Origin: Dehalococcoidia bacterium
Lineage (GTDB): Bacteria; Chloroflexota; Dehalococcoidia; Plut-88900
Assembly: GCA_965207225.1 (NCBI GenBank)
Contig: CBDBLV010000002.1
Location: forward strand, 96,001-160,000
Direction: 5' to 3'
Length of the DNA: 64,000 nucleotides
The notes below the pieces were generated by a model, which was not told the origin of the DNA, made no database searches, and saw only the letters and a list, made by a program, of their open reading frames with translations. This document shows, piece by piece, positions 997 through 16,862 of the stretch; the first letter of the stretch is position 1, and the number at the start of each line of letters is the position of its first letter. The position numbers and the translations under genes were made by a program.

Positions 997-1143
997 CTGC
1001 GTATCTTCCATCCGCATAATGTTTGGCCGGGCCCCATGTGGTCTGAGATAGCAACTCGTCTCTACAGCTCAAGTGCTCTTCTCCGCGGAGCCGGCCGCTA
1101 GGAGGCGGACCCATCAGGCATGGCTCAATTCCCCAAATCCCAG

Positions 1144-3462: not shown

Positions 3463-5058
3463 CTAAGAGGGCTTCGTGACGCGATTTCTGGCAGGCGTGG
3501 CTGAGCCGCCCAGCACAATCTCCTCGGACTCCGCTTCGGGCATGTGACTGTCGTCGGGCATGGGTACGTTGTAGTGGATCACGGCCTTGCTTGGCATGAC
3601 CACAATCTCCCCGACGAAGGTCTCGGCAAAGGCCTTGCGCTCGGACAACTCGCTCTCCCCTAGAAACTCGCCCATGTCCTGCGCCCGTGCAACGATGGCC
3701 TCCAGGTCGGACTTGACCGACCTGCGCTGGGAAAGGATGGACTGAGCCTCCTCCAACGATGCCTCAAGAAGGCTCCGCCTCTCAGTGTTGGCCTTGATCC
3801 GGATATCCATGTCAGCCGGGACGTCGTCGGTGGTCTCCACAACGTCCCAGAGCCGACCTAGCCGGCGCCGCACGTCAGCCAGTTCAGATTCGATGGTCTC
3901 CAGTCTCCCACGTTGTTCGCGGACCAGGCCATCCAGCTCCTTAGCAACGACTTTCGTCAGATCGCCAATGATGCCTTCGGTTAGGATGCTAGAGCGAATC
4001 GTCCTGACGATCACATCCTCGAAGCGGCGGGCGTTGAGCCTGGGGGTATCGCAGCCGCCGCTCCCACGTTTGATCAGGGACTGGCAGACGTAGTAATGGA
4101 ATCTGCCGCTCTTGGCGTCCTGGCCCGAGAGCAACGTCTTGCATCTGTAGCACTTGACGAGCCCGCTGAACATGTAGGAGCTTCCCACCCTACGGGGATG
4201 GGCGATCCTGGGTGCGCGGGAACGCGTCCTGGCGTTCACCCGGCGGAACAGAGCCTTGGAGACTATGGGCGAGAACGCCCTCTCCACTCGAACCGGCTCA
4301 GCCTCGTCTCCGGCAGCGGTGCCCCAGACGAGAGTCCCTGTGTACACCTCGTTGGTGAGGATGAAGCGGACCGCATTACTGGTCCAGTGCTTGCCGGTGG
4401 CGCTGGAGATGCCCTGGCCGTTGAGGGTGCGGGTGATGTCCAGCATCCCTTTTCCGGTGTCGGCCAGCTCGAAGATCCGTTTGACGACATAGGCCGTTTC
4501 CTCATCGGGTTCCAGCTTGGGCCGCTTCTTGGCACCGTCCTGCACCATGATCCTGTTGTAGCCGTAGGGTGTCCTGCTGGCGACCCAGAAACCCCGGGAA
4601 GCGGCCTCTCGCATCCCGCGCCGGACCTCTTGCGCCAGATTCTCCGAATAGAATTCGTCGACGCTCTCGATGATTCCTTCAAGGAGTTTGCCAGCTGGAG
4701 TGTCGTCGGCGTTCTCAGTTATGGAGACGACCCTGACGCCGCGCCTGCGGAGCATGGACTTATAGGCGACGGCGTGCTCGCGCTTCCTGGTGAACCGTGA
4801 GAACTTCCAGACCAGTATCTCCCGGAATGCGGCATCGGGAGATCTGGCTTCTTCTATCATCTTGTTGAACTGGGGCCGGTCGTCGACCCAGCCGCTCTCG
4901 GCCTCGTCGACGTACTCACGGACGACCACCTGGCCATTCTTCTCGGCGTGGTCCCTCAGCGCCCGCAACTGGGCTGCGACCGACAGGTCCACGTCCTGAC
5001 GGTCGCTGGAGACCCTGGCGTAGAGGGCCACCGGTGTGGGTTCGGGTCTTTCACTCAT
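3463..5058 (-). CDS. Large serine recombinase (resolvase + recombinase + Zn-ribbon/coiled coil)
   Basis: YARVSS catalytic Ser motif, PYGY, CYRC..YYVC..C Zn ribbon; start MSERPEPTP at 5058. Confidence 0.95.
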   Translation of the reverse strand: MSERPEPTPVALYARVSSDRQDVDLSVAAQLRALRDHAEKNGQVVVREYVDEAESGWVDDRPQFNKMIEEARSPDAAFREILVWKFSRFTRKREHAVAYKSMLRRRGVRVVSITENADDTPAGKLLEGIIESVDEFYSENLAQEVRRGMREAASRGFWVASRTPYGYNRIMVQDGAKKRPKLEPDEETAYVVKRIFELADTGKGMLDITRTLNGQGISSATGKHWTSNAVRFILTNEVYTGTLVWGTAAGDEAEPVRVERAFSPIVSKALFRRVNARTRSRAPRIAHPRRVGSSYMFSGLVKCYRCKTLLSGQDAKSGRFHYYVCQSLIKRGSGGCDTPRLNARRFEDVIVRTIRSSILTEGIIGDLTKVVAKELDGLVREQRGRLETIESELADVRRRLGRLWDVVETTDDVPADMDIRIKANTERRSLLEASLEEAQSILSQRRSVKSDLEAIVARAQDMGEFLGESELSERKAFAETFVGEIVVMPSKAVIHYNVPMPDDSHMPEAESEEIVLGGSATPARNRVTKPS

Positions 5059-5194
5059 CTTGGGTTCCTTCCACTGTTCGTGCTGTTCGGTCACGGCAGC
5101 CCATGGAACGGTTCCCGTGCAGCCATTCCGCCTAACAGGCATCTTGGGATGCGACAAATGTGGTGGTGGAAATTGCCGAGAAGAGGCTTCCGCG

Positions 5195-5550
5195 ATTGGG
5201 ACATTCAAGCGGCCGCTGCGGATTTTCGGCATGGACGGCCGCCAGAGACAGGACGTCGAGGTGGTCGTGGGCACCGGTGCCTTCTACACCACGTTGCCCG
5301 TTGGCCTGTTGCGCAGCCTGGGAATAGAGCCGAGGGGCAAACGCAGGTCCCACAAGCCGGTGGGCGGGGGATCGATCTGGACTATGGCCAGGCCTGGGTT
5401 TCGATAGACGGCAAGAGCGAGATCACCCAGGTGGTATTCGGAGAGGACGATTCTCCGGCCCTGCCGGGGACATACAGCCTTGATTGTGTGGCCCTGGAGG
5501 TGGACCACATCGAACAGCGGCTGGCCCCCAAGACCCTGATCTTGTACTAG
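5195..5550 (+). pseudogene. Degenerate clan AA (retropepsin-like) aspartic protease
   Basis: Two frames join: GTFKRPLRIF...VVGTGAFYTTLP..LLRSLGIEP, then GQAWVSIDG..TQVVFGE..PALPGTYSLD..ALEVD; catalytic DTG reads GTG, start reads ATT, frameshift near 5350. Confidence 0.7.
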
Positions 5551-5649
5551 GGCCAGCGCCCTTTCCCGTTTGCGACTCCACCCGGCCTCCTCTGCGCTCC
5601 GCGTCGGCCCTCCCCGACGATACCGGCGCCTCTTCAGCTCGACTCCTTC

Positions 5650-5850
5650 CTAACACCCTGAAGTGTCACTCGCATCCCCTTCCGAGTCTTCTTCATTCGG
5701 TCTCGGCGGCTGTGCAACCCTGGGCTTAGGCGCCTGCTCTCTCAGGTGAGCGCGGAGAGCGACCTTCGCCAGGATGCTCAGTCCCTGCCGGATTGTCTTT
5801 TGTTGAGTTGCGGAGTACGACTGCCACTCCGACGTCTTATCATCTTCCAT
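5650..5850 (-). CDS. Small helical protein upstream of LSR
   Basis: 66-aa ORF abutting the bilD stop; similar in size and position to 29510-29716. Confidence 0.5.
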   Translation of the reverse strand: MEDDKTSEWQSYSATQQKTIRQGLSILAKVALRAHLREQAPKPRVAQPPRPNEEDSEGDASDTSGC

Positions 5851-7266
5851 TCATCTACTCATGTAGGCCGTTGATGGGCCAGGCTCCAGCGTAGCGGCTG
5901 TCGTACCTGGGTTGAATGGCGGACCATCACTACACACCACCGCCTGGCGCAGCTCAAGAGAGCGTAGGCTCCCATCTACAAGCTCGTATCGAGGTCCGCC
6001 CGATCCCAGCCTTATGAGCTCGGCGATGACCACTGCCGCCGTGACTGCACCCACAAATGACGCACCAACGGTGCGGCCAGCCAACGTGATGATTCCACAA
6101 TCGTCGACTCCGTCTTGAGCTAGTGCGCGGTAGGCGGGATTCTCGGCCACGGCATCCGCATCGGGCCGGTGTCCTTCCGTCCCCCAGCGATGCCTTGCTG
6201 TTCGGCTGGCCGGGAACGTGTGGGTCTGAAATGCGAGGTATTCCTGGGTGCCGGCACCCAGGCCAGCTTCAATGACGCGGTCAAACCCAACAACTTCGAG
6301 GTCCGCTCGGGCAAGAGCATTGTCTACGCCACACAGAGCAACACGTGGCTCATCCCCTGCAACCACAAAGTCGCCCGCGAATTTCCGCTCCACTATGGAA
6401 GTGCGGAACCCGCGTAGTTCACACCAAGCCGCCATCGCTCGGGTCTTCTTCGCCCCCAGGATCGCCCGCGCTGTGAGGAGCGAGGTGCTGTCATTGGCCT
6501 CGACGAGCTCATCAAAATCCTGGAGTACGAGGTTGACCTCCTCAGGGGACTCATAGGGCAGGAGACCGAGTGTCCAAAGAAACGCTTGGCCCAGGTGGCC
6601 GAGCCCGATAATCCAGGCACTTGCCGGCAGTCGTTCTAGTTTGGGTCCCAGCTCATCAGCGTCTAGCCAGTTGATGGCCTTATCCGGCTGCCACAGCGAC
6701 AGTCCAACATCTCGTCGCCCAGCCACGGCGTTATCGCCGCGCACGAACTGGAATGCCTCTGAAACCCCGAGTGCTCCCGCGAGAACTCCTGCCGGAATGC
6801 ACTCTTGCCGCTCCGGGAGTTGAAGACCTTGATGCAGAGGTGCAACGCCCGCACGCCAGCCATCAAACGTCGCGCGCACAGCGAACTCAGCATCCGTAGG
6901 CGGCGGGGACTTACCCCCCATCACGATGCGCGGAATGCCAGGAGCGCAGTCAGCAATGACCCCTCCTAGATCTACAATGGCTTCCCGCAGGGTGCGGCAA
7001 CGTCCCCAGGACACCAACAGGGGCACATCAAGCGTACCCTCGACACTCACTCCGCCCAGAAAGCTGCGACGGCCTGTGTTTACCGCTGTCAGCAACGCTG
7101 CCTGCATCGTTGGTGAGTGGGCGACACTGCCCCCCACCACGATGCCGAGTCGATAGCTGTCGAAGAGGCGCCGTGCCTCTTCGAGGCTTCCCGCCTCTCC
7201 CGTATCTAGGACGAGCTTGAGGTGTCTGTGCAACTCATCTGGTCCTATGACTGCGTTCTTTGTCAT
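5851..7266 (-). CDS. bilD: E1-like ThiF/adenylation enzyme of Bil system
   Basis: GLGHLG nucleotide-binding loop, DFD..VEAN, KKT, CGVDN..AR, candidate catalytic Cys in DDCG; ATGA overlap with the JAB gene. Confidence 0.88.
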   Translation of the reverse strand: MTKNAVIGPDELHRHLKLVLDTGEAGSLEEARRLFDSYRLGIVVGGSVAHSPTMQAALLTAVNTGRRSFLGGVSVEGTLDVPLLVSWGRCRTLREAIVDLGGVIADCAPGIPRIVMGGKSPPPTDAEFAVRATFDGWRAGVAPLHQGLQLPERQECIPAGVLAGALGVSEAFQFVRGDNAVAGRRDVGLSLWQPDKAINWLDADELGPKLERLPASAWIIGLGHLGQAFLWTLGLLPYESPEEVNLVLQDFDELVEANDSTSLLTARAILGAKKTRAMAAWCELRGFRTSIVERKFAGDFVVAGDEPRVALCGVDNALARADLEVVGFDRVIEAGLGAGTQEYLAFQTHTFPASRTARHRWGTEGHRPDADAVAENPAYRALAQDGVDDCGIITLAGRTVGASFVGAVTAAVVIAELIRLGSGGPRYELVDGSLRSLELRQAVVCSDGPPFNPGTTAATLEPGPSTAYMSR

Positions 7267-7787
7267 GCCCATACTCCTGTATAGAAGAAACGTCCCCAAC
7301 CGGCTGCCCTGTAATTGCGCCACCTGTGACTGCCGAGATACTCGTAGACGCCCACGTCCCGCATCCTGAAGTCAATCGCGAAGTTCGGCACGATCAGCGC
7401 CACGTGACCAGCCTGCGCGATCATCGGGTTGTCCCTGTCAAGCGGGCTCTGCCGCGCCGGTCCGGAGCCGCCGTGCGTGTGCAAATCGGCAAGCACCCTC
7501 AGACCGGTCTCCCGACAGAGCTGCCACAACGGTCCGAAACCCGCTCCATCAAAGACCACAATGCCGGAGTCAAGGCAGGCTGGGTCGAAATCGTCGTAGT
7601 ACGCGAATCTCACCACATGGCCACGCAGGCCATCTCTGTAGCCGAGCAGGAACGCGCCACTTTCGTGGCGACCTTCTCCGCGTCTGGCGACCTCAGTAAG
7701 CCCCTGCCGCCAAACCGCCCTGGGGCACCTCAGTCTATGCCTAGGCGCCGTTAGGGCCCGAATAGTCGCTCGAATTGAGAAGGTCAT
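7263..7787 (-). CDS. bilC: JAB/MPN metallopeptidase (deubiquitinase-like)
   Basis: ESGAFLLG...DLHTH...QSPLD JAMM motif. Confidence 0.88.
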   Translation of the reverse strand: MTFSIRATIRALTAPRHRLRCPRAVWRQGLTEVARRGEGRHESGAFLLGYRDGLRGHVVRFAYYDDFDPACLDSGIVVFDGAGFGPLWQLCRETGLRVLADLHTHGGSGPARQSPLDRDNPMIAQAGHVALIVPNFAIDFRMRDVGVYEYLGSHRWRNYRAAGWGRFFYTGVWA

Positions 7788-8229
7788 GGACAATCCTCAA
7801 GTAGTGTGTGATGTCGCTCTCTGGCGACCAGATCATCGAGGGGTGTTGCGTCCGCCACCCGTCGTGGCCCTCGATGGAGAGGCGGTCACAAGGTAGATAG
7901 AGGCACCGGCCGTTGTTCCATCCAGGATTGAAGGCCTTGGATACACGTTTCGTTCCACTTGGCCAGCGCTCCGGTGGCAGTGGAGCATCTTCTTCAGCAT
8001 CCCATGGCTGAGCTGTTGGGGGCGACTGAGGATAGTTCGTGCACTCGAAGCGCAGCGCATACTCAGTTGGACCACCCTCCCTCCCAGCCGCCTGGACAGC
8101 GATTACGGCGTGGGGCCAGTTTATGGAGAGCAGGCGCCACCGGCCGCGGTCGAAGCCACTCTGGAACGGTCCGGCTTCGAGGTGGGCCCGAAACACCTGC
8201 TCGTCCACTCCCATTGTCTGCGCGGACAA
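7741..8229 (-). CDS. bilB: E2-like ubiquitin-conjugating protein
   Basis: LRFECTNYPQSPP, LYLPCDR (catalytic Cys), W...HP..W; position between Ubl and JAB genes. Confidence 0.85.
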   Translation of the reverse strand: MSAQTMGVDEQVFRAHLEAGPFQSGFDRGRWRLLSINWPHAVIAVQAAGREGGPTEYALRFECTNYPQSPPTAQPWDAEEDAPLPPERWPSGTKRVSKAFNPGWNNGRCLYLPCDRLSIEGHDGWRTQHPSMIWSPESDITHYLRIVHDLLNSSDYSGPNGA

Positions 8230-8232
8230 GCC

Positions 8233-8754
8233 CTAACCCTCCACCCGCTGCTTCGCAACCAGGTCAAAGCAGAGGGTCCCGTCCGGGAATTTCACGAGCG
8301 TGCCGATATGCACCTCTTCGTCAGGCTGGTCGCCTGAGTTGCAGACCTTGAGCACATGCTCGGCGGCGTCAACGGGCGACAGGTTGTACTGGTCCTTCCC
8401 GGTCGCCCATTCCTTCACCCGGTCAACCGTCGCCGATGGGGCGAAGAACCCCTTCTTCTGGTCCTGGTTGTAGTTGACCGTGACCTCGACGCTCTTGCAG
8501 CGGTGTATGTGCACGCGGCTGCGGGGAGTGAGGCCGGCCTCATCGATCTTCACGTCCAGTTCCAGGGTGACGTCGGTGTTTTCGATGAAGACGCACACCT
8601 CTGTGTCCTCAGGCCCGCTCAGGCCATGTTCGCGGGCTATCTTGACGATATCCGCCACGGTGTCCTTCGGGCCGAGTTTCACAAGGGTGATCTTCGGGAT
8701 GCCCTCTCCCTGGATGAAGATCTCAATCTGGTCCGGCGCATTGAGCTGAGTCAT
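8233..8754 (-). CDS. bilA: ISG15-like two-domain ubiquitin-like protein
   Basis: Two beta-grasp-sized repeats (..DTVADIVK.., ..SATVDRVKEW..), C-terminus KQRVEG ending in Gly; first gene of the Ubl-E2-JAB-E1 operon. Confidence 0.85.
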   Translation of the reverse strand: MTQLNAPDQIEIFIQGEGIPKITLVKLGPKDTVADIVKIAREHGLSGPEDTEVCVFIENTDVTLELDVKIDEAGLTPRSRVHIHRCKSVEVTVNYNQDQKKGFFAPSATVDRVKEWATGKDQYNLSPVDAAEHVLKVCNSGDQPDEEVHIGTLVKFPDGTLCFDLVAKQRVEG

Positions 8755-8823
8755 TCGACTGTCCTTTCTCCCACAGCGGTGGGACTCTCTGGAGTGGGCG
8801 TCGTTTGATGCCCCTACTAAGAC

Positions 8824-8851
8824 AATCGGAGAAGAAGGGACAGACCGGAAA
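8824..8851 (-). promoter_or_regulatory. Candidate alternative-sigma promoter TTTCCGGTCTG-N12-CGATT upstream of bilA
   Basis: Identical 11-mer and 5-mer at identical 12-nt spacing to the motif at 13768-13795. Confidence 0.7.
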
Positions 8852-8875
8852 TGGCCGTGCCAGCGGCAGTGACGG

Positions 8876-11800
8876 TTACGTGTCCTCGCCCAGCGGGCAG
8901 ATAAAGTAGTGAGGACAACGGGGACAGATGCGGTCGCTAGGCTTGGGTGAGAAATCCTCGCGCAGGATGCCTTTGATGGCTTCGTTGTAACGGTCCAGGC
9001 GAGTCTTGATGGGTCCGGGTCGTGGGTCGACCGGGTCTACCTGATCGGCCGACAGGTAACGTACCTGTACGCGCCGTCGAACGCGTGGCTCAGCCTCCTG
9101 GGCCGCCGTCACGTACAGAGCATAGATGTCCTTTCCGACCTCGCTCTTCGTCGGACGACCGGTGCGGAGACGCTCAACGACCTCGGAGCCATCGCTGAGC
9201 ACCTCGACATGATCGGGCGTGAATCGAATCAGGCCATGTGGCACCGACACCTCCCACGTTGGCCTTGTTGCGGATCCTTGAGACGTGTATGGGCGTCTCG
9301 CAGCCATCTCTACCAGGTCAACGGCTGAGGCACGATACAACTCCTTGTACGGGTGCTCTTCCGGCCCTTGCTCCTGCCAGACTTCTGCCAGGTAAGCGAG
9401 CGCGGCCGTCTCATCTACAGGATTTCCAGAGGCGCGTTCCTCCGCCATCCAGCGCAACACACGATAGACGCAGCGGTGAAACTCGACGTACCCGGAATCC
9501 TCGCGTCTCCGATTCAACCCGAGGACGCTCTCGTAGAAGTACTGACGCGGGCAACGGATGTAGACATCTAGGTCTTCAGCGGCGAAGGGCTCGCTTGCCG
9601 GCGTGGGGTCTGCTACGAAGACCGGAGCAGTAGTCGTGGATGCCCAAGTGACGGGGCTCGACTGATCTCTGGGCAACAGGCCTGCCATCTTGTCGAGCAG
9701 ATCTGACGCATGGCTGTTCTGCGCTCCGTACCTGCGAACTCGCGAAAGACACAGGAAGTCTCTCGCACGGGATAGCCCGACGAAGAAGAGGCACTCCTCT
9801 TCTTCGTCGTGGTCATCACTGGCGGATACGATCATACCCTCGGGAGGAGGACAGGGCTGTGCCTGACGTCGGGCCGGGAACAGACCTTTGCCCAGAAACG
9901 GCAAGTAGACGGCCTGAAACTCCAGTCCCTTGCTCGCATGCACGGTCAGGAGTCGCACTGCATCGATGTCGTCCGCCCAGGTCGGCAGATGCCGGAGTTG
10001 CTTCTCGTCTCCGTATATCTCAAGTCGGCGCACGTATCGCAAGAGACGGAGCTTGGCGTCAGTCGCCTCCCCGGGAGCCGCCGGTCGCTGTTCGTGGACG
10101 AACTGGAGGAATTGATACAGCGCCAGCAAGCGTTGCTGCCCAGCCACGGACGGATCGCCCAAGAGGGTGTCCAGATAGCGGCTTCTCTCGAACAGGTAGT
10201 AGGTGAGCAGCGTCCAGGGTCCGACATGCCTCATCCCATCTACATGGCGTCCCAGCAGAGCGAGACCTTCTCGACCCTTTGGCGAGATGGTCGCTTCCGT
10301 CGCAGCCAGAGCCAATGCGCCCGGGAAAGGGACGTTCCATTCCTTTGCCAGTTCGAGCAGCGCGAGAACATCATCGAGCGGGATGTCGTACTCGGGAAAC
10401 CGCGCCAATCGAACTAGACCCCGCCCATCAGGTTCGCAGGCGAAGGACAAGAGGGATAGCATGTCTCGGATTTCCGGACGCTCGAAGAGGTCACCCAAGT
10501 AGAGAACCGGCACGCCTAAGCCTTCGAGTTCGGCTGCGACTCTGCCAAGGTTTGTATGGGAACGACAAAGAACGGCTTGCTGGCTGTAAGGGATGCCGGA
10601 GGCCCGCTGACGCTCAATCTCCGTAGCCATTCCGGCCGCCTCAGCAGCAAGGTCGTCGGCAACCTCCAACAAGACCCGCCCGCCAGAGTCTGGACGCTTC
10701 GGCTCCCAACGGACGAACCCTGGTCCGCCCTGGCTTGCCCGCATACCGGGTGCCAGCCCTGCGAAGACATCCACAATAGCTGGTTGGGACCTGTAGTTGT
10801 ATCTGAGAGACTTTAGCTTTGCCCCAGGAAAGTCCTCGCCGAATCGCCGCATATTGGCCGGGGCGGCGCCGCGGAACCGGTATATTGCCTGACGTGTATC
10901 CCCTACAACCCAAAGACCTGCGCCCGCACCGGCCAGCTCCTTAAGGAAAAGCCCGCTGGCACGGTTCACGTCCTGGTACTCATCGACCAGAACATGGCGA
11001 TAGGTGCTCCGCAGCGTGTCCCGCACATCGACGTGCGTCCTGAGGAGCGACACTGATTTGTAGATGAGATCCCCGAAGTCGAGTAGATGCTCCCGGTCAA
11101 GGACATCCTGATACTTCCTGTAGACGCGCGCAACCTCGACGGCTTTCTCGGCCGCCTCCGTCTCGTCAGGCGTCGTGGCCCGAGCAAGCATGTTCTCCCC
11201 AAGATCGGCATACTCTTGTGGCCCTACCAGCTCGTCCTTCGCCCGGGATATTGCCGACATGATGTCACGCAGGTAGAGAGCGGGGTCATACAAGTTCTGA
11301 TAGTGGTCCAGCTCCAAGTCTGAGACCATCCCCTCCAGCAGGGCGATAGAGTCGGACGGATCCAGCACGCCTACCCGGGCTGGGAGACCTACGTGAGCGC
11401 TGTACCTGCGCAGCAACTCCAGACCAAAGGCATGAAAGGTCCCGATCCAGATGCGGGGTGCATCATCAGGTCTGGCCTCTGCCACACGTGACCGCAGTTC
11501 CTCGGCCGCGCGGTTCGAGAACGTCAGCGCAAGGATCGATGTTGGAGGCACCCCTTGTTCAAGGAGAAACACGATCCGGCCCACCAAGGTGCGGGTCTTT
11601 CCGGTCCCCGGACCGGCTTCCAGGAGCAACGGCCCCCGCGGCGCGTGAGCAGCGTCCTGCTGGCTGGGGTCCATGGGACGTTCGTCCGTTCCGCCAGCAG
11701 ATACGCCAGCAGGACGGATTTCCGGCGTGAGCAGTGCCCGTGCCATCTGCTGTAGAACAAGCGACTCGGGAAGGCCCAGCCTCTCTGCTGTGTTGCTTGC

Positions 11801-12268
11801 GCTGGCCCTATCAGTCTCGTACCAGGCACGCAGGACGTCAGTCGGGAGCAAGAACTCCCGTGCAAAGACATTCGCCTCACGCTCTCTCAGTTCCTCCGGC
11901 CCATAACCCTCAACCCGATTTACGCCAACCGGCAAGGGTTCCTCAATGGCCTCGGGATCGAGGTTGAATTCTCGCTGGCTCTCCCGTTCGGGGTGCAACC
12001 ACAAGTGGGCATACTCGTGAGCATGATAGAAGCGAGCCAGCCTGGGTTCGACTTCGCGGTTGAACCACACCCTCTTCATGACGTGGTCGAGCGCCGCATC
12101 GGCGCCGTCCAGCAACGAGTCGCCGGCGGCCAGGGCGATTCTTTCGAAGCCAGTCAGCCGCTCTGCCGCAGCGAGCAGTGATTCAGCTGAGGGATCTCCC
12201 CCCGCTTCTCTAAGCGCTGCGGAGCGCTGCGTCCGTGCCAGCCTCCTTATTTCGTCCCAGTGGCTCAC
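8876..12268 (-). CDS. ImmA/IrrE metallopeptidase - UvrD/SF1A helicase - Fe-S PD-(D/E)XK-like fusion
   Basis: HEYAH..EREANVFAREFLLP; AGPGTGKT, DEYQD, VGD..QAIY.FRGA, TVHASKGLEF, SRAR; C-terminal CPR...CPRCPHYFIC. Confidence 0.92.
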   Translation of the reverse strand: MSHWDEIRRLARTQRSAALREAGGDPSAESLLAAAERLTGFERIALAAGDSLLDGADAALDHVMKRVWFNREVEPRLARFYHAHEYAHLWLHPERESQREFNLDPEAIEEPLPVGVNRVEGYGPEELREREANVFAREFLLPTDVLRAWYETDRASASNTAERLGLPESLVLQQMARALLTPEIRPAGVSAGGTDERPMDPSQQDAAHAPRGPLLLEAGPGTGKTRTLVGRIVFLLEQGVPPTSILALTFSNRAAEELRSRVAEARPDDAPRIWIGTFHAFGLELLRRYSAHVGLPARVGVLDPSDSIALLEGMVSDLELDHYQNLYDPALYLRDIMSAISRAKDELVGPQEYADLGENMLARATTPDETEAAEKAVEVARVYRKYQDVLDREHLLDFGDLIYKSVSLLRTHVDVRDTLRSTYRHVLVDEYQDVNRASGLFLKELAGAGAGLWVVGDTRQAIYRFRGAAPANMRRFGEDFPGAKLKSLRYNYRSQPAIVDVFAGLAPGMRASQGGPGFVRWEPKRPDSGGRVLLEVADDLAAEAAGMATEIERQRASGIPYSQQAVLCRSHTNLGRVAAELEGLGVPVLYLGDLFERPEIRDMLSLLSFACEPDGRGLVRLARFPEYDIPLDDVLALLELAKEWNVPFPGALALAATEATISPKGREGLALLGRHVDGMRHVGPWTLLTYYLFERSRYLDTLLGDPSVAGQQRLLALYQFLQFVHEQRPAAPGEATDAKLRLLRYVRRLEIYGDEKQLRHLPTWADDIDAVRLLTVHASKGLEFQAVYLPFLGKGLFPARRQAQPCPPPEGMIVSASDDHDEEEECLFFVGLSRARDFLCLSRVRRYGAQNSHASDLLDKMAGLLPRDQSSPVTWASTTTAPVFVADPTPASEPFAAEDLDVYIRCPRQYFYESVLGLNRRREDSGYVEFHRCVYRVLRWMAEERASGNPVDETAALAYLAEVWQEQGPEEHPYKELYRASAVDLVEMAARRPYTSQGSATRPTWEVSVPHGLIRFTPDHVEVLSDGSEVVERLRTGRPTKSEVGKDIYALYVTAAQEAEPRVRRRVQVRYLSADQVDPVDPRPGPIKTRLDRYNEAIKGILREDFSPKPSDRICPRCPHYFICPLGEDT

Positions 12269-12909
12269 GGTTCCCCCGTAGACCGTTCAAGCGCATACCA
12301 GTGTTCAGCATGCTCGGGACTGATTGTCGGGTCAGCGCGAACCGCGTCGAAGAAGTCCTCCTGCGCCATGAGCTTCGGTGCTTGCTCGGAGCGATGCTCG
12401 GTCCCAGCCGCCAGTATCGGGTCCTGCTGTAGGTAGGCCCTGATGTTCGTTGCCTCGCGTTCAACTGCTTGGGCAATGCGGTCAATCAGCTCTTCCGGGA
12501 TGGTGGCCCAGGCGATCAAGCGGCGGTCAAGCTTTCTGAGGAGGCTGTCCCCCAATCCAACATCATGCGCCAACCGGCGCGGCTCAAGACCCCGTGCTTG
12601 CCCTTCCGCTATCAGACTCTCAAAAGGCACCGCCGGATCTGAGGTAGACTCCGTCGATTGCCCGTGAAGTATGTTCTGGACAACACTCATGCCTCGAAGC
12701 ACCAGCGTTTCTTCGGTGACTTCCTCCGCGTTAGGTGCGGCAGGCAACCACGTCATCAGGCTCCAGCTGGCTGCGAACTCGATGATCTCTCGCTCGAACT
12801 CCGGGTAGCGCCGAGTCCATTCTTCAAGCGGGCTATTGGGGCCGACACCGGACGCCACGTAGGCATCGAGTACGTCCTCCAGGAATTCCTGGTCCATTGG
12901 TCTGTTCAT
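12265..12909 (-). CDS. Putative anti-sigma/HTH protein
   Basis: Helical N-domain (LEEWTRRYPEFEREI), HTH-like LAHDVGLGDSLLRKLD; 4-nt start/stop overlaps with both neighbours; function inferred. Confidence 0.65.
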   Translation of the reverse strand: MNRPMDQEFLEDVLDAYVASGVGPNSPLEEWTRRYPEFEREIIEFAASWSLMTWLPAAPNAEEVTEETLVLRGMSVVQNILHGQSTESTSDPAVPFESLIAEGQARGLEPRRLAHDVGLGDSLLRKLDRRLIAWATIPEELIDRIAQAVEREATNIRAYLQQDPILAAGTEHRSEQAPKLMAQEDFFDAVRADPTISPEHAEHWYALERSTGEP

Positions 12910-13712
12910 CTCTGTTCTCCTCGCCATGCCTCCAGAATCTCATCAGCTCTGGACAACCAGTTTCTGATCGTTCGAGGTGTCTTGCCGAAGTGTCGGCTGA
13001 TAGTCCGTACAGCCGGGTCCTTGTCTTCGATTGGCCAGTCTTCCAGGTGGCGGAGTAGGTATGCGGACCGGATGGGCTCCTCCAATTGATTCAGCGCCGC
13101 TTCAATCAAGACGTTGTCGATCGCCTCCGATGCGACGGAGCGACCACCTGAAGCAGCCGGCACCACCTCGGCGCCCTGCTGAGTTAGTTCGTCGATGGCC
13201 ACTTGGTCGTAGTCACCGCTGGACTCAGTGTCAAACTGTTTGATTTGCTTCCGAAAGACATCCACCGTGATTCTCTCGATGACCGTCCAGAAGCGGACTT
13301 GAAGAAAGTCCCCGCGGTCGCTATCCAGGTCCAGTATCCGGGTGAATACCTCCGCGACGACTGCTGCGTTCCCATCTTCCCTCAGATCCGTTCTCAAGCC
13401 GCTCAACTTACCGTTTATCCAGGTCGCACAACGCTTCAGCAGGCACTCGGTGAGGTCGTTGACGCATTTTCGATTTCCCACTGCGTGGTGGTGCCGTATC
13501 AGATAAACCAGCGACTCCTCCTTCAGAAATACGGGCGACTCTTCGTCACGAACTATCAGTCGGCTTCGAAGCTCTTCGTCGTTCAGTCCGAGGGCCCCTT
13601 CGATCTGCCTGTCCACAACCGCCAGGCGCTGGTAAAGCTGACCATGCGCGTTGCGGTGTGTCAGTGGCTGCGGCAGGCAGGATTCAACCTGCCGTGAGGT
13701 TTCATGCTCCAT
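12906..13712 (-). CDS. ECF-like RNA polymerase sigma factor with N-terminal extension
   Basis: Region 2-like (..RFWTVIERITVDVFRK) and region 4 (ALNQLEEPIRSAYLLRH..ISRHFGKTPRTIRNWLSRA). Confidence 0.8.
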   Translation of the reverse strand: MEHETSRQVESCLPQPLTHRNAHGQLYQRLAVVDRQIEGALGLNDEELRSRLIVRDEESPVFLKEESLVYLIRHHHAVGNRKCVNDLTECLLKRCATWINGKLSGLRTDLREDGNAAVVAEVFTRILDLDSDRGDFLQVRFWTVIERITVDVFRKQIKQFDTESSGDYDQVAIDELTQQGAEVVPAASGGRSVASEAIDNVLIEAALNQLEEPIRSAYLLRHLEDWPIEDKDPAVRTISRHFGKTPRTIRNWLSRADEILEAWRGEQR

Positions 13713-13767
13713 CTATGGCCTCATGTACGAGTCTCATGTTCAACCGCTCCAACTCACCTGACTTCCT

Positions 13768-13795
13768 AATCGTGTGTGACCCCGCAGACCGGAAA
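13768..13795 (-). promoter_or_regulatory. Candidate autoregulatory sigma promoter TTTCCGGTCTG-N12-CGATT
   Basis: Second copy of the motif found upstream of bilA; ends about 56 nt before the sigma start. Confidence 0.7.
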
Positions 13796-13922
13796 GTATG
13801 ACTCTGCGGTCGACAGCAATCTGGACGCCCACCCCCCTGGTTTGAATGGGTCCATCGCCGGGTCTTCCGACCTATCGTTTGCGCCTTCCTCCTTGTCGTC
13901 CCTACGTCTGTATCTGCATTGC

Positions 13923-14756
13923 TCACTCCTGCTGGCTGGTCACCTCCAGCAGATCCTGGCTGAGAGCAACGCTCGATGCGGCGATGAAATCGGAGTCCTC
14001 CGTAGCCGGAACGGCCCTGACAACCAACTGGGTGCCCATGTCGGTCGGTGTGCTGAACAGGCGCTGAAACATCGACAATGCCTCAAAGGTCACCGCGCTC
14101 GAGATCTCGTGCGCCTGCAGGAGTCTGAACTCCTCTGCCATCTCGGCAGTGTCAATGGTGCGAAGGAGCCGGTAGATATCAAAGGCGTCCTTGGGGAGTT
14201 GGTCCCGGCGGCGGATATCGTCGTCCTGGAGACGTTCCCCGATCTTGTGTACCTTCGCCACCAGCAGCGCGGCCGGGCTTGCTACTTTTAGCAGGCATGA
14301 GCGGTCCGAACCTGGAACCAGAGAGCTGACCCTCCTGCGACTATGGCCAACAAGAGCACCCTCGAGTCCATGAACCTTCATGGCCGCCCTGTTCCCATGG
14401 ACGCCAAGCCGGGCGGCCCTGCGGCCAGGCCCGCCCACAGCCTGCGGCACCAGCAGGTCGACCTGCGCCCCACCAGCTCTCCTGTACAGTCCGGGTTGGT
14501 CAGACAGCCGGAATCCTGCGAGGCCCATGGCGTCGCCTAAGGCAGGGCTATCCCTCAGCAGGTCTGGATCAAGCGCGAGGTCTGCGTCATAGGTAAACCG
14601 GGCAACGCCGAAGCTGTCATCCTCGCCCTCTATCTGCACGTATATCGCCTGGGCGCCCACCAGAATGACCGCATCGCTGTGGGGTCCCAGCGCCTCGATG
14701 GCGTCGAGCAGCGTCTCGCGAGCATCTATGTAGTGTTGGTCATCGATAGTTTCCAT
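13923..14756 (-). CDS. AbiEii-like nucleotidyltransferase (type IV TA toxin-like)
   Basis: VILVGAQAI...TYDADL, VDLLVP, LLVAKVHK, KDAFDIYRLL. Confidence 0.8.
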   Translation of the reverse strand: METIDDQHYIDARETLLDAIEALGPHSDAVILVGAQAIYVQIEGEDDSFGVARFTYDADLALDPDLLRDSPALGDAMGLAGFRLSDQPGLYRRAGGAQVDLLVPQAVGGPGRRAARLGVHGNRAAMKVHGLEGALVGHSRRRVSSLVPGSDRSCLLKVASPAALLVAKVHKIGERLQDDDIRRRDQLPKDAFDIYRLLRTIDTAEMAEEFRLLQAHEISSAVTFEALSMFQRLFSTPTDMGTQLVVRAVPATEDSDFIAASSVALSQDLLEVTSQQE

Positions 14757-15862
14757 CTGTCCTCATTGTCCCGCATCCACTCCAAGAGGGCCTCCGCCTC
14801 GGTCGGTCCTCGCCCAGGCCCCTTCATGAGGTCGAGCAGGACCTGGGTCACGCGGGCGTAGGTGATGCCGTCGTCGCGTTCAGCGCGCTCGAACGCCACG
14901 GGGTCGAATGGGCGTACGAGGAGAACATTGCCTCCGGTATCTGCCGGGCGCAGTCCCAACAACCGCGCCGCAGTCTCCGGATCCTCAACGTAGAGTGACG
15001 CCAGGCGCGGCTCTGCAAACGGAGCCAGACGATACGCCGCAAAGGACCCGGTCACGGTGTATCGGAGTCCCGTTTCGCGAAGTCGGGCGAACAGCGCCCC
15101 CGTTCCCCTAGGTTCAAGCCACGATGTGAGGGTGTTGGAGGCCGTGAAATCGTAGTCCATGGCCCATCTACGGGCCAGAGCCTCCCAGTCTACCGAGACG
15201 ATGCGTCCTCTTGGGCTCTCCTTGGCGACGATCTCGTCCGCCTCCAACAGGTTGCACACCCTCGATATCATGGCGGGGGAGCTTGCAGTCTCAGCAGCTA
15301 GCTCCCGGGTTCCGAAGGGGGTCCGATAGTCGAGGAGGCCCCTGACGACGCGGCCAGCGCGGCCTCCCTTCAGCGAGCGAAGGGGGCGCTCTTCTCTGAA
15401 CGGGTTCCTGTCCGCCCCCTGGGTCTCGATATACACTGCGGGACGTTCAATGGCGAATCTGATGTTGCCGGTCGAGTCGGCATAGCTGATGCCGGCCTCC
15501 GCAAGCCGTTCCCTCGTTAGGGGGCTCAGGTAGGTCGAAACGAGCATGAAGGCGGGATTGACGCTTGCTTGTCTGCTCCTCGGGTATGACAGCGCCTTCA
15601 GCTGGGACTCCACACTGCCGACGAGCCTGGGTTCCACCGGGTTCGCCTTGACCTCAACGATGATGTCGGACGAGAGTCCATCGGGGTCTCGGATTTCCCA
15701 GATGGCGTCGATTCCGCGGGCGGGGTCCCGCGGGGACCGTACAGCCTCACGCCCCTCGCGGTCGAGCAGGCGCCACCGCCGGGGCAGTCGCGTGCCTATG
15801 TCCTTAGCGGCCTCGTCTAGGAGTCGTGTTTCTGATATGTAGCTGTTGCGCAGCATGTGCAA
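14726..15862 (-). CDS. AbiEi-like antitoxin / transcriptional regulator
   Basis: N-terminal REase-like fold (DAIW..VEVK, GISYADSTGN), wHTH (TRELAAETASSPAMISRVCNLL), C-terminal VTQVLLDL..GPGRG.EAE. Confidence 0.78.
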   Translation of the reverse strand: MHMLRNSYISETRLLDEAAKDIGTRLPRRWRLLDREGREAVRSPRDPARGIDAIWEIRDPDGLSSDIIVEVKANPVEPRLVGSVESQLKALSYPRSRQASVNPAFMLVSTYLSPLTRERLAEAGISYADSTGNIRFAIERPAVYIETQGADRNPFREERPLRSLKGGRAGRVVRGLLDYRTPFGTRELAAETASSPAMISRVCNLLEADEIVAKESPRGRIVSVDWEALARRWAMDYDFTASNTLTSWLEPRGTGALFARLRETGLRYTVTGSFAAYRLAPFAEPRLASLYVEDPETAARLLGLRPADTGGNVLLVRPFDPVAFERAERDDGITYARVTQVLLDLMKGPGRGPTEAEALLEWMRDNEDRWKLSMTNTT

Positions 15863-16028: not shown

Positions 16029-16862
16029 CTACGATTCATTCCATAGGCGGGCGAGTGCCTGGATGAAGGCTCGGGCCTTGTCGATGGACCACTGGTCCCC
16101 GGATGAACCGAAGAGGTCGACCAGCTGGTTCTGGCACGTGAAATCGGCCAGTTCCGCCGTCCAGAGCCAGTTGACGACTTCGACGTAGGTTTCACGGAGG
16201 CTGCTTCTGAACAGGCCATTGGGGACGTTGTACAGGAGGCACTCCACAAAGTACGACGGTGCCGTGCCCTTGGCGAGTGCGTTGCTGTCAACGAGGTGAT
16301 TGCGCGCCGCCTTGAACATGCGGGTTGCCCGCTTGTACCTGCCGCTGGTGCCCCGCTCCTTCCTTGCTCCCTTGGAATGATGCTGCTGGGGATAACTCAC
16401 GGCCCAACGATGCTCGTCGGGGATGTAGAGTGCAATCCCGTTGCCACACTTCAGCGTCACGACAACGTCGGCCGCTGCCGGAATCGGACCTCCGGCGATC
16501 TTCAGGGATTTGCGGCCTGGAGTCACCGCTTGACCGAACCTGGCTCTGAGGGCGGCTAACACAAGCCGGCGGAACGACTGCCATCTTCCATATGCAAGCT
16601 CGTGAGACTCGCTGTTCTGGAGTTGCGGCCCGGTGAGTGCCGCCACCCTGGGCCTCAGACGCTCATCGAGTTGCACGACCAGGTCCACGTCGCTGTCCCT
16701 TCGCAGGTTCGTGTCATTCTTGTAAGAGCCCTGAAGAAACATCTCGTGCACCGGTAGACCCTGCCGAGCCAAGGCGTCACGGATTGCCGTGTGTGCCTGA
16801 ACGGATGCCGTCGCCGCGTGGTGATGGCTCCACTGTCCTAGTGTCGAATCCGGGATGGGCAA
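16029..16862 (-). CDS. cGAS/DncV-like nucleotidyltransferase (CD-NTase, CdnE-like)
   Basis: LQGSYKNDTNLRRDSDVDLV, ADVV, YPQQH..G..K, R.FK.AR, APSYFVECLLYNVP. Confidence 0.88.
   Translation of the reverse strand: MPIPDSTLGQWSHHHAATASVQAHTAIRDALARQGLPVHEMFLQGSYKNDTNLRRDSDVDLVVQLDERLRPRVAALTGPQLQNSESHELAYGRWQSFRRLVLAALRARFGQAVTPGRKSLKIAGGPIPAAADVVVTLKCGNGIALYIPDEHRWAVSYPQQHHSKGARKERGTSGRYKRATRMFKAARNHLVDSNALAKGTAPSYFVECLLYNVPNGLFRSSLRETYVEVVNWLWTAELADFTCQNQLVDLFGSSGDQWSIDKARAFIQALARLWNES

Follow-up and report, generated by a model that had tools for sequence, protein, structure and literature searches.

In the CapH/CapP, ImmR/ImmA and DdrO/IrrE (PprI) pairs, an XRE-HTH regulator is cut after DNA damage by the M78 metallopeptidase encoded next to it, and the CapP/IrrE peptidases carry a small sensor domain. 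In the available text of the respective reports, CapP is described as cleaving CapH upon activation by ssDNA (PMC13373217) and PprI/IrrE as binding ssDNA (PMC10904395). CapH/CapP were reported beside 25 of 162 Type II Bil operons, with capH/capP divergent from the Bil operon in all but one case (10.1101/2023.09.26.559546, accessible part). CapK/CapS precede five Bil operons and, together with CapW, are presented in the sections at hand as regulators through which Bil, Bub and CBASS respond to DNA damage (PMC13373217). As for the product of the Bil pathway, conjugation of the ubiquitin-like protein (Ubl) to the phage central tail fibre is described for other Bil systems in the available text of 10.1101/2023.09.04.556158.

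The window analysed here is a stretch of 64,000 nt from Dehalococcoidia bacterium (assembly GCA_965207225.1, contig CBDBLV010000002.1, positions 96,001 to 160,000 of the forward strand). It contains a cassette of seven genes, all on the minus strand, in the order sigma, 214-aa protein (p214), M78-UvrD-nuclease fusion (M78Hel), bilA, bilB, bilC, bilD (Table 1). The sigma stop and the p214 start overlap as ATGA, the p214 stop and the fusion start as GTGA (4 nt), and a gap of 121 nt (8755-8875) separates the fusion gene from the bilA start at 8754. The ORFs and coordinates bear out the earlier note, which had described the first three genes (the trio) as coupled by 4-nt overlaps and placed 121 nt upstream of bilABCD; the 215 aa that it gave for the HTH protein had to be corrected to 214. 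The listed ORF of this protein (12265-12927, minus strand) has 220 aa and, since the homologues are 214 aa long, translation probably starts from the ATG at 12909. As with CapK/CapS and CapW, the regulatory module lies directly 5′ of the immune operon. The chemistry of these regulators, kinase/STAS-wHTH or WYL repressors in the available descriptions, is without the sigma, peptidase and helicase of the cassette. Unlike the capH/capP genes, divergent according to the accessible text, the regulators of the cassette, M78Hel included, are co-directional with bilABCD.

Table 1. Positions of the cassette features in the window (residue numbers for the parts of p214).
Feature	Position	Strand	Basis
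P_sig promoter-like motif, TTTCCGGTCTG-N12-CGATT	13768..13795	(-)	Pattern search and alignment across loci
Divergent ECF-like sigma, 268 aa	12906..13712	(-)	Pfam, TIGR02937, Foldseek
p214, anti-sigma-like protein, 214 aa	12265..12909	(-)	Homologue lengths, complex prediction, Foldseek
p214 N-terminal helical domain, predicted sigma-binding	residues about 5-85		
p214 XRE-type HTH domain	residues about 99-160		
p214 conserved loop (EHRSEQAP)	residues 167-179		C-terminal helices after loop
M78Hel: M78 (ImmA/IrrE) peptidase, UvrD/PcrA-type SF1 helicase, PD-(D/E)XK nuclease, 1130 aa	8876..12268	(-)	
P_bil promoter-like motif, second copy, inside the 121-nt gap 5′ of bilA	8824..8851	(-)	Pattern search and alignment
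Hairpin-capable stretch CCCACCGCTGTGGG in bilA 5′ leader, just 5′ of ribosome-binding site	8770..8783	(-)	
BilA, ubiquitin-like, 173 aa	8233..8754	(-)	PADLOC BilA, E 3.3e-50
BilB, E2-like	7741..8229	(-)	PADLOC BilB, E 2.4e-67; Pfam DUF7665, E 1.3e-61
BilC, JAB-family deubiquitinase-like	7263..7793	(-)	PADLOC BilC, E 3.1e-61; weak Pfam Prok-JAB
BilD, E1-like	5851..7323	(-)	PADLOC BilD, E 2.4e-170

The Ubl-E2-DUB-E1 order and four near-full-length PADLOC matches identify the downstream operon as Type I BilABCD. BilA ends in ...RVEG and has the exposed terminal glycine of a Ubl. The family-model match of BilD starts at residue 27, so that translation may in fact begin 3′ of the listed GTG. PDB sequence searches with BilB and BilD gave no match.

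We propose that a protease-gated sigma/anti-sigma switch drives both its own operon and Bil, a reading to which we give a probability of about 55%. The private ECF-like sigma would recognise a promoter made of a -35 TTCCGG, a 16-nt spacer and a -10 CGATT, occurring once 5′ of the sigma operon (sigma, anti-sigma, peptidase-helicase-nuclease) and once 5′ of bilABCD. At rest, sigma would be held off by the N-terminal domain of p214, wedged between sigma regions 2 and 4. The M78 metallopeptidase gene, directly 3′ of the p214 gene, would be translationally coupled to it, and on the peptidase a UvrD-like helicase and a RecB-type nuclease would replace the usual ssDNA-sensing domain. When the helicase-nuclease meets abnormal DNA (phage DNA ends, ssDNA, damage), the peptidase would recognise p214 via its XRE-type HTH and cut it, probably within or close to the conserved loop at residues 167-179. 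Released sigma would then boost its own operon and induce Bil, leading to conjugation of the Ubl to phage structural proteins.

The wiring of sigma to Bil is well supported in silico by the linkage, the conserved motif, the predicted binding of p214 to sigma, the CapH/DdrO-like HTH and the intact M78 motif. By analogy with ImmA/ImmR, IrrE/DdrO and CapP/CapH, we infer DNA sensing by the helicase, cleavage of p214 by the peptidase and release of sigma by this cleavage. The interpretation of the earlier note, in which a helicase-sensed signal leads to cleavage of the HTH protein and to sigma-driven expression of Bil, is partly supported overall. Literature searches returned no description of a sigma-driven, helicase-gated Bil circuit. 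Taken as a whole, the observations are on balance best explained if the 7.9-kb cassette is a Type I Bil defence unit that is complete in itself, moves horizontally and brings its own transcription switch. A more specific picture is offered tentatively: a portable cassette whose helicase-nuclease, acting on DNA ends or ssDNA, carries the protease destroying a cytoplasmic anti-sigma built on an HTH scaffold, such that processing of foreign DNA would directly license sigma to express its own operon, in a positive feedback, and Bil. If this is true, the private sigma/promoter pair would free expression from host regulators, and this independence would explain how the same seven genes can function in Chloroflexota, Acidobacteriota, Actinomycetota, Alpha- and Betaproteobacteria.

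The putative sensor was described in the earlier note as an IrrE-UvrD fusion. Both domains were indeed found by Pfam (Peptidase_M78, residues 63-173; UvrD, 199-843), but the nuclease had been missed (PDDEXK_1, 896-1125), giving three enzymatic domains. HEYAH is located at residue 84 and the Walker A sequence GPGTGKT at residue 219. All 25/25 aligned M78Hel proteins retain the HExxH motif with the downstream E..EAN, the Walker A, the DExQD and four Cys, and a 4-Cys cluster lies in the nuclease domain. The fusion has SF1A helicase motifs, like AddA/AdnB-type proteins (PDB 3u44, 6ppr) and PcrA/UvrD (1pjr), and its C-terminal nuclease belongs to the RecB family and bears a Cys cluster, like that of the AddA/AdnB type (3u44, 6ppr). 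Unlike AddA/AdnB, it is one polypeptide with an N-terminal M78 peptidase, and no partner-subunit gene was found nearby. As in CapH/CapP, an XRE-type HTH gene stands directly 5′ of an M78 peptidase gene with intact HExxH, and the pair is upstream of a defence operon; by this analogy a DNA-derived signal is expected. In contrast with CapP, M78Hel joins its peptidase to a UvrD helicase and a RecB-type nuclease and is without the small CapP/IrrE sensor domain.

A complete PcrA/UvrD-like helicase joined to a RecB/AddB-like nuclease with a Cys cluster could also be mainly an effector or repair-type enzyme acting on phage DNA, even if the sigma/anti-sigma pair controls the cassette. The peptidase would then act on itself, on a phage protein or on a component of Bil, and another signal would free the anti-sigma. 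In PADLOC the fusion strongly matched the Gabija helicase (GajB) and the helicase of a DRT system, in favour of such an effector role; these matches nevertheless span the generic UvrD core only, and no GajA or reverse transcriptase genes were found among the neighbours of the cassette. One Bil-linked plasmid locus (L109) retains sigma, p214 and BilABCD and is devoid only of the helicase protein, so the helicase is not strictly needed for induction there. Against an effector role stands the overlap of the HTH gene with the M78 gene directly 3′ of it, which is the standard ImmR-ImmA and CapH-CapP arrangement. In addition, a short aromatic-basic-small-acidic...P loop is found in most p214 proteins with an adjacent M78Hel and in 0/11 without one, a hint, among sequences that are mutually related, that this loop goes along with M78Hel. 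Overall, we consider an effector role rather unlikely. The preferred reading, protease-gated release of sigma, has points of its own to answer: the peptidase is without the CapP/IrrE sensor domain, and the region of p214 predicted to bind sigma (8-84) is distant from the candidate cleavage loop, both of which count against it.

In the sigma protein, sigma2 and sigma4 are preceded by about 80 aa of N-terminal extension. Pfam Sigma70_r4_2 (PF08281) matched it with 29.5 bits, above the 25.7 cut-off, and the sigma homologue of locus L078 passes Sigma70_ECF (PF07638; 31.3 for a cut-off of 21.1). The top Foldseek match of the AF2 model was the sigmaE-RseA complex (1or7_A, E 3.2e-4, prob 1.0), and further top matches were AlgU-MucA, SigH and SigL, all two-domain ECF sigmas; TM-scores were low, owing to domain orientation and the N-terminal extension. 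The model thereby shows the two-domain sigma fold. A PDB sequence search with the protein gave no match.

For the pair of sigma and HTH protein, whose structure prediction the earlier note had proposed, binding was predicted. The complex had an ipSAE of 0.90, as compared to 0.01 for the best of three controls; a mark of 0.90 is reached by 58/80 solved complexes and 2/110 mismatched pairs, a calibration that is only approximate here as custom alignments were used. The score may mirror likeness to known complexes, since sigma/anti-sigma complexes have already been solved. Three runs agreed in at least 83% of contacts with a partner pLDDT of at least 78, and the interface involves p214 residues 8-84 facing sigma residues 76-157 and 200-243. 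The N-terminal helical domain of p214 is thus predicted to bind both sigma2 and sigma4. This domain had no Pfam, NCBIfam or PDB family match, the zinc-ASD motif HxxxCxxC is absent from p214, and residues 1-90 hold no Cys. Residues 99-160 match XRE HTH folds, namely the CapH N-domain (7t5u, TMt 0.77), DdrO (6jq1) and SinR, and the nearest Atlas clusters to p214 carry HTH_31.

Several features recall sigmaE-RseA and AlgU-MucA: a two-domain sigma, a co-transcribed partner predicted between sigma2 and sigma4, an apparently autoregulated sigma promoter and, by analogy, a proposed proteolytic release. Unlike RseA and MucA, the anti-sigma of the cassette is cytoplasmic, without zinc motif or membrane span, and carries an HTH; the proposed protease also differs, being the M78-helicase-nuclease of the same operon. 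The sigma itself differs from sigmaE and AlgU by its N-terminal extension and is too divergent for a curated family cut-off. Compared to CapH/CapP, the HTH protein has gained a predicted sigma-binding domain, and the output would be a dedicated sigma instead of plain de-repression.

P_sig and P_bil carry exact copies of TTTCCGGTCTG-N12-CGATT, as expected from the earlier note, which had seen a motif common to both transcription units; 0/100 shuffles gave two matches. At P_sig, TTCCGG begins 82 nt upstream of the sigma ATG, and this site forms the left edge of the conserved cassette. The 4.03-Mb genome has no other exact copy; one extra site with two mismatches is at chance level, a reversed control pattern having likewise given one. 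Across loci, the strict pattern TTCCGGTY-N13-16-YGATT gave 24 matches in 338.7 kb, all 24 on the coding strand at the two expected sites (shuffled-sequence mean, 0.08), and the expected sites without the strict pattern hold variant boxes. The motif is kept upstream of bilA in all Bil-linked loci examined, including across phyla. In plasmid loci the -10 box varies between loci and agrees within a locus, with TTGTA at both sites in L104 and L107 and TGCGACT at both in L105. The presence of this bipartite motif before both units fits a -35/-10 promoter that the cassette sigma would use.

The same region could be read differently, p214 being chiefly a CapH-like DNA-binding repressor with the shared motif or the box just 3′ of it as operator, and the 268-aa protein a LuxR/GerE-type activator or co-regulator. 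Indeed, the HTH of p214 is well folded and XRE-like, and both sites have, immediately 3′ of CGATT, another conserved element as the third (..TAGTAGG.. / ..TAGGTGAG..), a candidate operator for the HTH protein. The 268-aa protein stays under the TIGR02937 cut-off (E 2e-4, 20.9 bits for 42.9), and its plasmid homologues have Pfam GerE matches and PGAP ‘LuxR C-terminal-related’ labels, public annotation naming them LuxR-type or response regulators. A repressor of this kind is nevertheless quite improbable: the motif is bipartite and non-palindromic, keeps its two boxes about 16 nt apart, and covaries like -35/-10 boxes; the fold matches and the homologue passing Sigma70_ECF point to a sigma; and the predicted contacts use the N-terminal domain of p214, outside the HTH.

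The conservation of the cassette was examined in other genomes. The seven genes occur in the same order in 13/13 related genome loci (Chloroflexota, one Actinomycetota, one Acidobacteriota), in the single metagenome contig long enough to show all seven, and in 5/6 fetched proteobacterial plasmid loci (the sixth being L109), whose p214 proteins are only 23-32% identical; five shorter metagenome contigs show sigma-p214-M78Hel as far as the contig end. Nucleotide homology between loci starts 1-7 nt 5′ of the -35 box and stops at the bilD 3′ end, and the flanks outside these shared boundaries differ. The comparison of loci makes it well supported that the trio and Bil have been inherited together as a single unit across phyla. 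The earlier note had held that rare co-occurrence of the trio with Bil would speak against the link; co-occurrence is strong within the clade, in favour of the link, but Bil is adjacent to 0/20 distant trio relatives in Chloroflexota, a few of which adjoin BREX or Hma genes.

That the trio forms a separate module responding to DNA damage or DNA ends, merely beside Bil in a defence island without regulatory link, is very unlikely: relatives without Bil in 10/20 distant Chloroflexota loci (near FtsX-like permease, FAD oxidoreductase etc.) and a closely related trio without Bil (L077) speak for it, yet the motif 5′ of bilA is kept in every Bil-linked locus examined, the seven genes have sharp common boundaries, and L077 is nested within the Bil-linked clade on the M78Hel tree (quick tree, midpoint root), which fits secondary loss of Bil. 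As for the bilA leader, an Rfam search with CCCACCGCTGTGGG found no family; this hairpin-capable stretch is retained in most close relatives.

Seven co-directional genes were found on the minus strand of the window: a sigma-like gene, the gene for the anti-sigma-like HTH protein p214, the gene for M78Hel, and bilA to bilD. ORF coordinates, Pfam and PADLOC confirmed the arrangement that an earlier note had read upstream of bilABCD. The HTH protein, taken there to be 215 aa long, has 214 aa according to homologue lengths; because homologues are uniformly of this length, the ATG at 12909 is the likely start. This ATG overlaps the stop codon of the upstream sigma gene (ATGA), the M78Hel start overlaps the p214 stop (GTGA), and a 121-nt gap separates M78Hel from the first bil gene. 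The presumed IrrE-UvrD fusion does join a peptidase to a helicase, but Pfam revealed a PDDEXK_1 nuclease domain that had been overlooked. PADLOC matches to BilA, BilB, BilC and BilD were nearly full length (E 3e-50 to 2e-170), and PDB sequence searches with BilD and BilB returned no match.

Genes of the cassette and of its immediate surroundings in the window
Feature	Size	Position	Strand	Assignment or remark
Large serine recombinase	603 aa	3463-5274	(-)	directly downstream of bilD
BilD		5851-7323	(-)	PADLOC
BilC		7263-7793	(-)	PADLOC
BilB		7741-8229	(-)	PADLOC
BilA		8233-8754	(-)	PADLOC
M78Hel	1130 aa	8876-12268	(-)	Pfam Peptidase_M78 (63-173), UvrD helicase (199-843), PDDEXK_1 nuclease (896-1125)
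p214	214 aa	ORF 12265-12927, likely start ATG 12909	(-)	Pfam: none
Sigma-like protein	268 aa	12906-13712	(-)	Pfam Sigma70_r4_2
AbiEii + AbiEi		13923-15862	(-)	upstream of sigma
NTase		16029-16862	(-)	weak SMODS match; also upstream of the cassette

The sigma-like protein is very divergent. TIGR02937 aligned with residues 106-259 at a score under the cut-off, and a PDB sequence search gave no match. The best Foldseek match of its AF2 model (pLDDT 73) was E. coli sigmaE in the RseA complex (E 3.2e-4, prob 1.0), with AlgU-MucA, SigH and SigL next. A homologue from a related locus scored above the Pfam Sigma70_ECF cut-off, and a nearly invariant DFLQVRFW stretch lies at what we take to be the position of region 2.2-2.3. 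The fold matches, the Sigma70_ECF match of the homologue and the position of DFLQVRFW point to an ECF-like sigma.

In the AF2 model of p214 (pLDDT 72), a part made of four N-terminal helices (5-85) precedes a confidently modelled five-helix domain (99-160) and further helices at the C-terminus. The linkers at 84-92 and 167-179 have low confidence, the second being a nearly invariant EHRSEQAP stretch. By Foldseek, the middle domain resembles XRE-type HTH proteins, among them SinR, DdrO, C.BclI and the N-terminal domain of CapH (7t5u, TMt 0.77), and the closest Atlas clusters carry HTH_31. With the whole model no match reached E <= 1e-3, and all that came up were local HTH matches. The N-terminal domain had no fold relative by Foldseek, residues 1-92 yielded nothing usable in the Atlas, the PDB search with the p214 profile gave one chance match (E 0.78), and no phage record matched. 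The pairing of the sigma with the HTH protein, which the earlier note had proposed for structure prediction, was indeed predicted as a complex, with a score of 0.90 as compared to 0.01 for the best control. Of 80 solved complexes 58 attained this mark, as did 2 of 110 mismatched pairs; this calibration is only rough here as the prediction used custom alignments. Because solved sigma/anti-sigma complexes exist, the pass may also reflect likeness to known structures. The runs agreed in at least 83% of contacts, with partner pLDDT of at least 78. Residues 8-84 of p214 contact sigma residues 76-157 and 200-243, a predicted interface corresponding to the classical anti-sigma clamp between sigma2 and sigma4. 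The N-terminal part contains no Cys and matched no curated anti-sigma family. Hence p214 is predicted from the model to work like an ASD and is not assigned to a known ASD family.

A promoter-like motif precedes both groups of genes. As the earlier note had proposed, the motif is common to the two transcription units: TTTCCGGTCTG-N12-CGATT occurs exactly at 13768-13795 and 8824-8851 on the coding strand, two matches were obtained in 0 of 100 shuffles, and the 4.03-Mb genome contains no other exact copy. A third copy, with 2 mismatches, was rejected as a regulon member since one such match also turned up with a reversed control pattern. Taking TTCCGG as the -35 element leaves a spacer of 16 nt before CGATT. 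Across the 15 closer loci (338.7 kb), the strict pattern TTCCGGTY-N13-16-YGATT occurs 24 times, always on the coding strand, in front of sigma or in the interval from M78Hel to bilA, as compared to a mean of 0.08 matches in block shuffles. The remaining 6 of the 30 expected sites carry a variant -10 box such as TAATT, AGATT, ACATT or GTATT. In the proteobacterial plasmid loci, a similar -35-like TTTCCG(G/A) box is found at both sites in five of six cases, the upstream copy of L108 being only a partial match. The -10-like box varies between plasmid loci and agrees within each: TTGTA at both sites of L104 and of L107, TGCGACT at both sites of L105, CGAT(T/A) at both sites of L106 and of L109. 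Such co-variation, read from sequence, is what a specificity factor encoded by the locus itself predicts.

The bilA leader (8755-8823, minus strand) is conserved among close relatives and contains CCCACCGCTGTGGG, a hairpin-capable stretch at 8770-8783(-) just before the ribosome-binding site. A few nucleotides after the -10 box, a further conserved box reads ..TAGTAGGGG.. before bilA and ..TAGGTGAG.. before sigma; its role may be that of start-site context, of an operator for the HTH domain or of a translational element. In window positions 5000-15000, Rfam gave nothing but a single chance lncRNA match (E 0.22). Contigs of metatranscriptome library X24, from a relative, cover parts of bilA-bilC, the M78Hel gene and p214 at 80-99% likeness; they can show neither transcription, starts nor strand, DNA carry-over is possible, and no expression inference was drawn from them.

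In M78Hel, the HExxH motif with the downstream E..EAN, the Walker A motif, DExQD and the four-Cys cluster framing the nuclease are kept in all 25 aligned homologues. The helicase is nearest to PcrA/UvrD, and the helicase-nuclease layout resembles that of AddA/AdnB. PADLOC assignments as GajB or as a DRT helicase were discarded: the matches span the generic UvrD core only, and no GajA or reverse transcriptase gene lies nearby. An XRE-HTH gene directly 5' of and overlapping an M78 gene is the arrangement of ImmR-ImmA, DdrO-IrrE and CapH-CapP. In these systems a DNA-damage signal leads the peptidase to cleave the HTH protein (PMC13373217, PMC10904395). A short aromatic-basic-small-acidic...P loop is retained by most p214 homologues next to an M78Hel; in the 11 homologues lacking an adjacent M78Hel, the loops are longer and unrelated. 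The loop is thus hinted to be a candidate recognition site of the peptidase, weakly so because the sequences are phylogenetically clustered.

The linkage to Bil was then followed in relatives. Among one-genome-per-species contigs, the p214 profile retrieved 13 loci (11 Chloroflexota, 1 Candidatus Aldehydirespiratoraceae and 1 Acidobacteriota), and all 13 have sigma, p214, M78Hel and BilA, B, C and D in identical order, with identities down to 44-69% in the most distant. Scanning metagenomes with alignment A1 gave seven loci, most of them short: one long contig (L099) carries all seven genes, five short ones carry sigma-p214-M78Hel up to the contig end, and one other holds a p214 fragment only. 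With tblastn, p214 matched seven plasmid records from Alpha- and Betaproteobacteria at 23-32% identity. Six were examined and five keep the seven-gene order: Rhizobium leguminosarum pRLN3, Variovorax sp. RA8 plasmid 2, Bradyrhizobium quebecense pBq12S5, Sinorhizobium medicae pMl5 and B. japonicum p1S06B. Peptidase_M78 was found in both plasmid helicases scanned with Pfam (L104, L105). The sixth plasmid locus, that of Cupriavidus sp. EM10 p352-2 (L109, 9192-16724), has a sigma-like gene, p214 and BilABCD and no helicase. In this locus an unrelated opposite-strand 295-aa gene occupies the helicase position, the promoter-like motif is present at both sites, and a 238-aa ORF, an AAA ATPase and S8 peptidases follow BilABCD.

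Pairwise blastn of the 15 closer cassettes showed that homology sets in 1-7 nt before the -35-like box and stops at the bilD 3' end, the flanks beyond being otherwise unrelated. These sharp boundaries indicate that the cassette moves as a discrete 7.9-kb unit including its promoter. An SbcD-like exonuclease gene and a large AAA/SbcC-like ATPase gene adjoin the cassette in two of the six plasmid loci (L104 4566-8779, L108 17040-20540), upstream in one and downstream in the other. In locus L006 (15119-15644), BilC matches in two frames with a break at ~15499-15501, a frameshift that reflects either a pseudogene or an assembly error.

The p214 family extends well beyond Bil. At E <= 1e-3 the profile matched 1194 cluster representatives, and 50 of 401 sampled Chloroflexota genomes had a match. 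In the same 401 genomes, the BilD model found a true BilD solely in the window's own genome (E 8.5e-170), the next best match (2e-28) being other E1-like proteins; with one true BilD only, this sample is uninformative on the fraction of Bil operons that bear the trio of sigma, p214 and M78Hel. Among 20 distant Chloroflexota loci examined, p214 is followed by M78Hel in ten. The trio's association with defence put forward earlier holds in part: Bil accompanies it in 13 of 13 closer loci but in none of the 20 distant ones, where BREX or HmaA stands beside individual trios. The genes 3' of the ten distant trios vary: a PglX fragment and BrxL (BREX) in one, HmaA (E 1.8e-176) in another, a PLD-SNF2 helicase in another, and an FtsX-like permease, an FAD oxidoreductase or unknown proteins in the rest. 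Since trio relatives lacking Bil carry such varied neighbours, the trio is a module of its own; at least one lineage of it is firmly tied to Bil.

In a quick, midpoint-rooted M78Hel tree, with L105 and L091 on long branches, the Bil-linked sequences of Chloroflexota type group together with support (SH-aLRT 100); this clade also includes L080, the locus with the BREX neighbour, in a basal position and L077, which has no Bil, in a nested one. The plasmid sequences, likewise Bil-linked, make up a group apart, and a third clade consists of eight non-Bil sequences. The nested position of L077 suggests a secondary loss of Bil. At this locus (G149:C55, 3197-11054) the trio is 54-66% identical to that of the window, and the helicase is followed by neither Bil nor a motif copy; the downstream genes are small unknown ORFs and those for a PIN-domain and a HicA-like protein. 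Sigma-p214 pairs without M78Hel adjoin housekeeping-type genes (for example LarC, APH-type kinases and SRP54). In four of five such Chloroflexota loci (L084, L085, L086 and L088, from G353, G337, G225 and G147), an ORF of ~390-430 aa comes after a distant pair that lacks any M78 peptidase; in the three loci examined for it (L084-L086), this ORF encodes a LarC-type nickel-insertion protein. Next in L084 are genes for a DnaJ-like protein and an RNase_T-DinG-type helicase, and L086 and L088 have ORFs of similar size; L087 (G385) has a different neighbourhood. The LarC-side pairs indicate that the p214 family is broader than defence.

The evidence best supports a model in which Bil is switched on by a private, protease-gated sigma; as a whole chain, this model is given a probability of about 0.55. 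The switch would consist of an orthogonal sigma and a protease-sensitive anti-sigma built on a repressor-like HTH domain, with the protease physically joined to a DNA motor and a nuclease. The sigma/anti-sigma/promoter part is likely. Cleavage by the M78 domain is, by analogy with the known pairs, fairly probable, and DNA sensing mediated by the helicase is put forward tentatively. One difficulty concerns sigma release, as in the model the proposed cut would fall outside the sigma-binding domain of p214. The second comes from the Cupriavidus plasmid, whose gene content shows Bil, sigma and p214 persisting with no helicase.

Other controllers of Bil have been described. They are CapH/CapP, found with 25 of 162 Type II Bil operons (10.1101/2023.09.26.559546), and CapK/CapS (five Bil operons) and CapW (PMC13373217). 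Literature searches on Bil, M78/IrrE, CapH/CapP and sigma factors in phage defence gave no description of a sigma factor or M78-helicase with Bil; Supplementary Table 1 of 10.1101/2023.09.26.559546 and the operon lists of Bil papers may hold such loci, and the one operon of that study in which capH/capP are not upstream and divergent could be of this kind. What is new is the merging of protease-controlled immune regulation with ECF-type sigma/anti-sigma control in one architecture, which bears on how costly or toxic defence systems stay silent and are then switched on. If true, the protease-gated switch would directly couple the transcription of a ubiquitin-like immune pathway to DNA processing, explain the cross-phylum mobility of the cassette and provide a compact orthogonal sigma/anti-sigma/promoter set. 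The plasmid copies in culturable Rhizobium, Sinorhizobium, Bradyrhizobium and Variovorax make the model directly testable.

The surroundings of the cassette are a defence island with mobility genes. Two different Bil types lie within ~15 kb. In the 10 kb before the window start (L110 2703-8354; G000:C2 ~88.7-94.4 kb), a CBASS-like pair, made of a SMODS cyclase fused to an E2-like region and a patatin phospholipase, is found with a Type II (CEHH/6C) Bil-like operon encoding a 146-aa ORF, Metal_CEHH, a JAB-like protein and a Prok-E2_C+ThiF E1. Another large serine recombinase, at L110 9336-11018, reaches window positions 1-1018.
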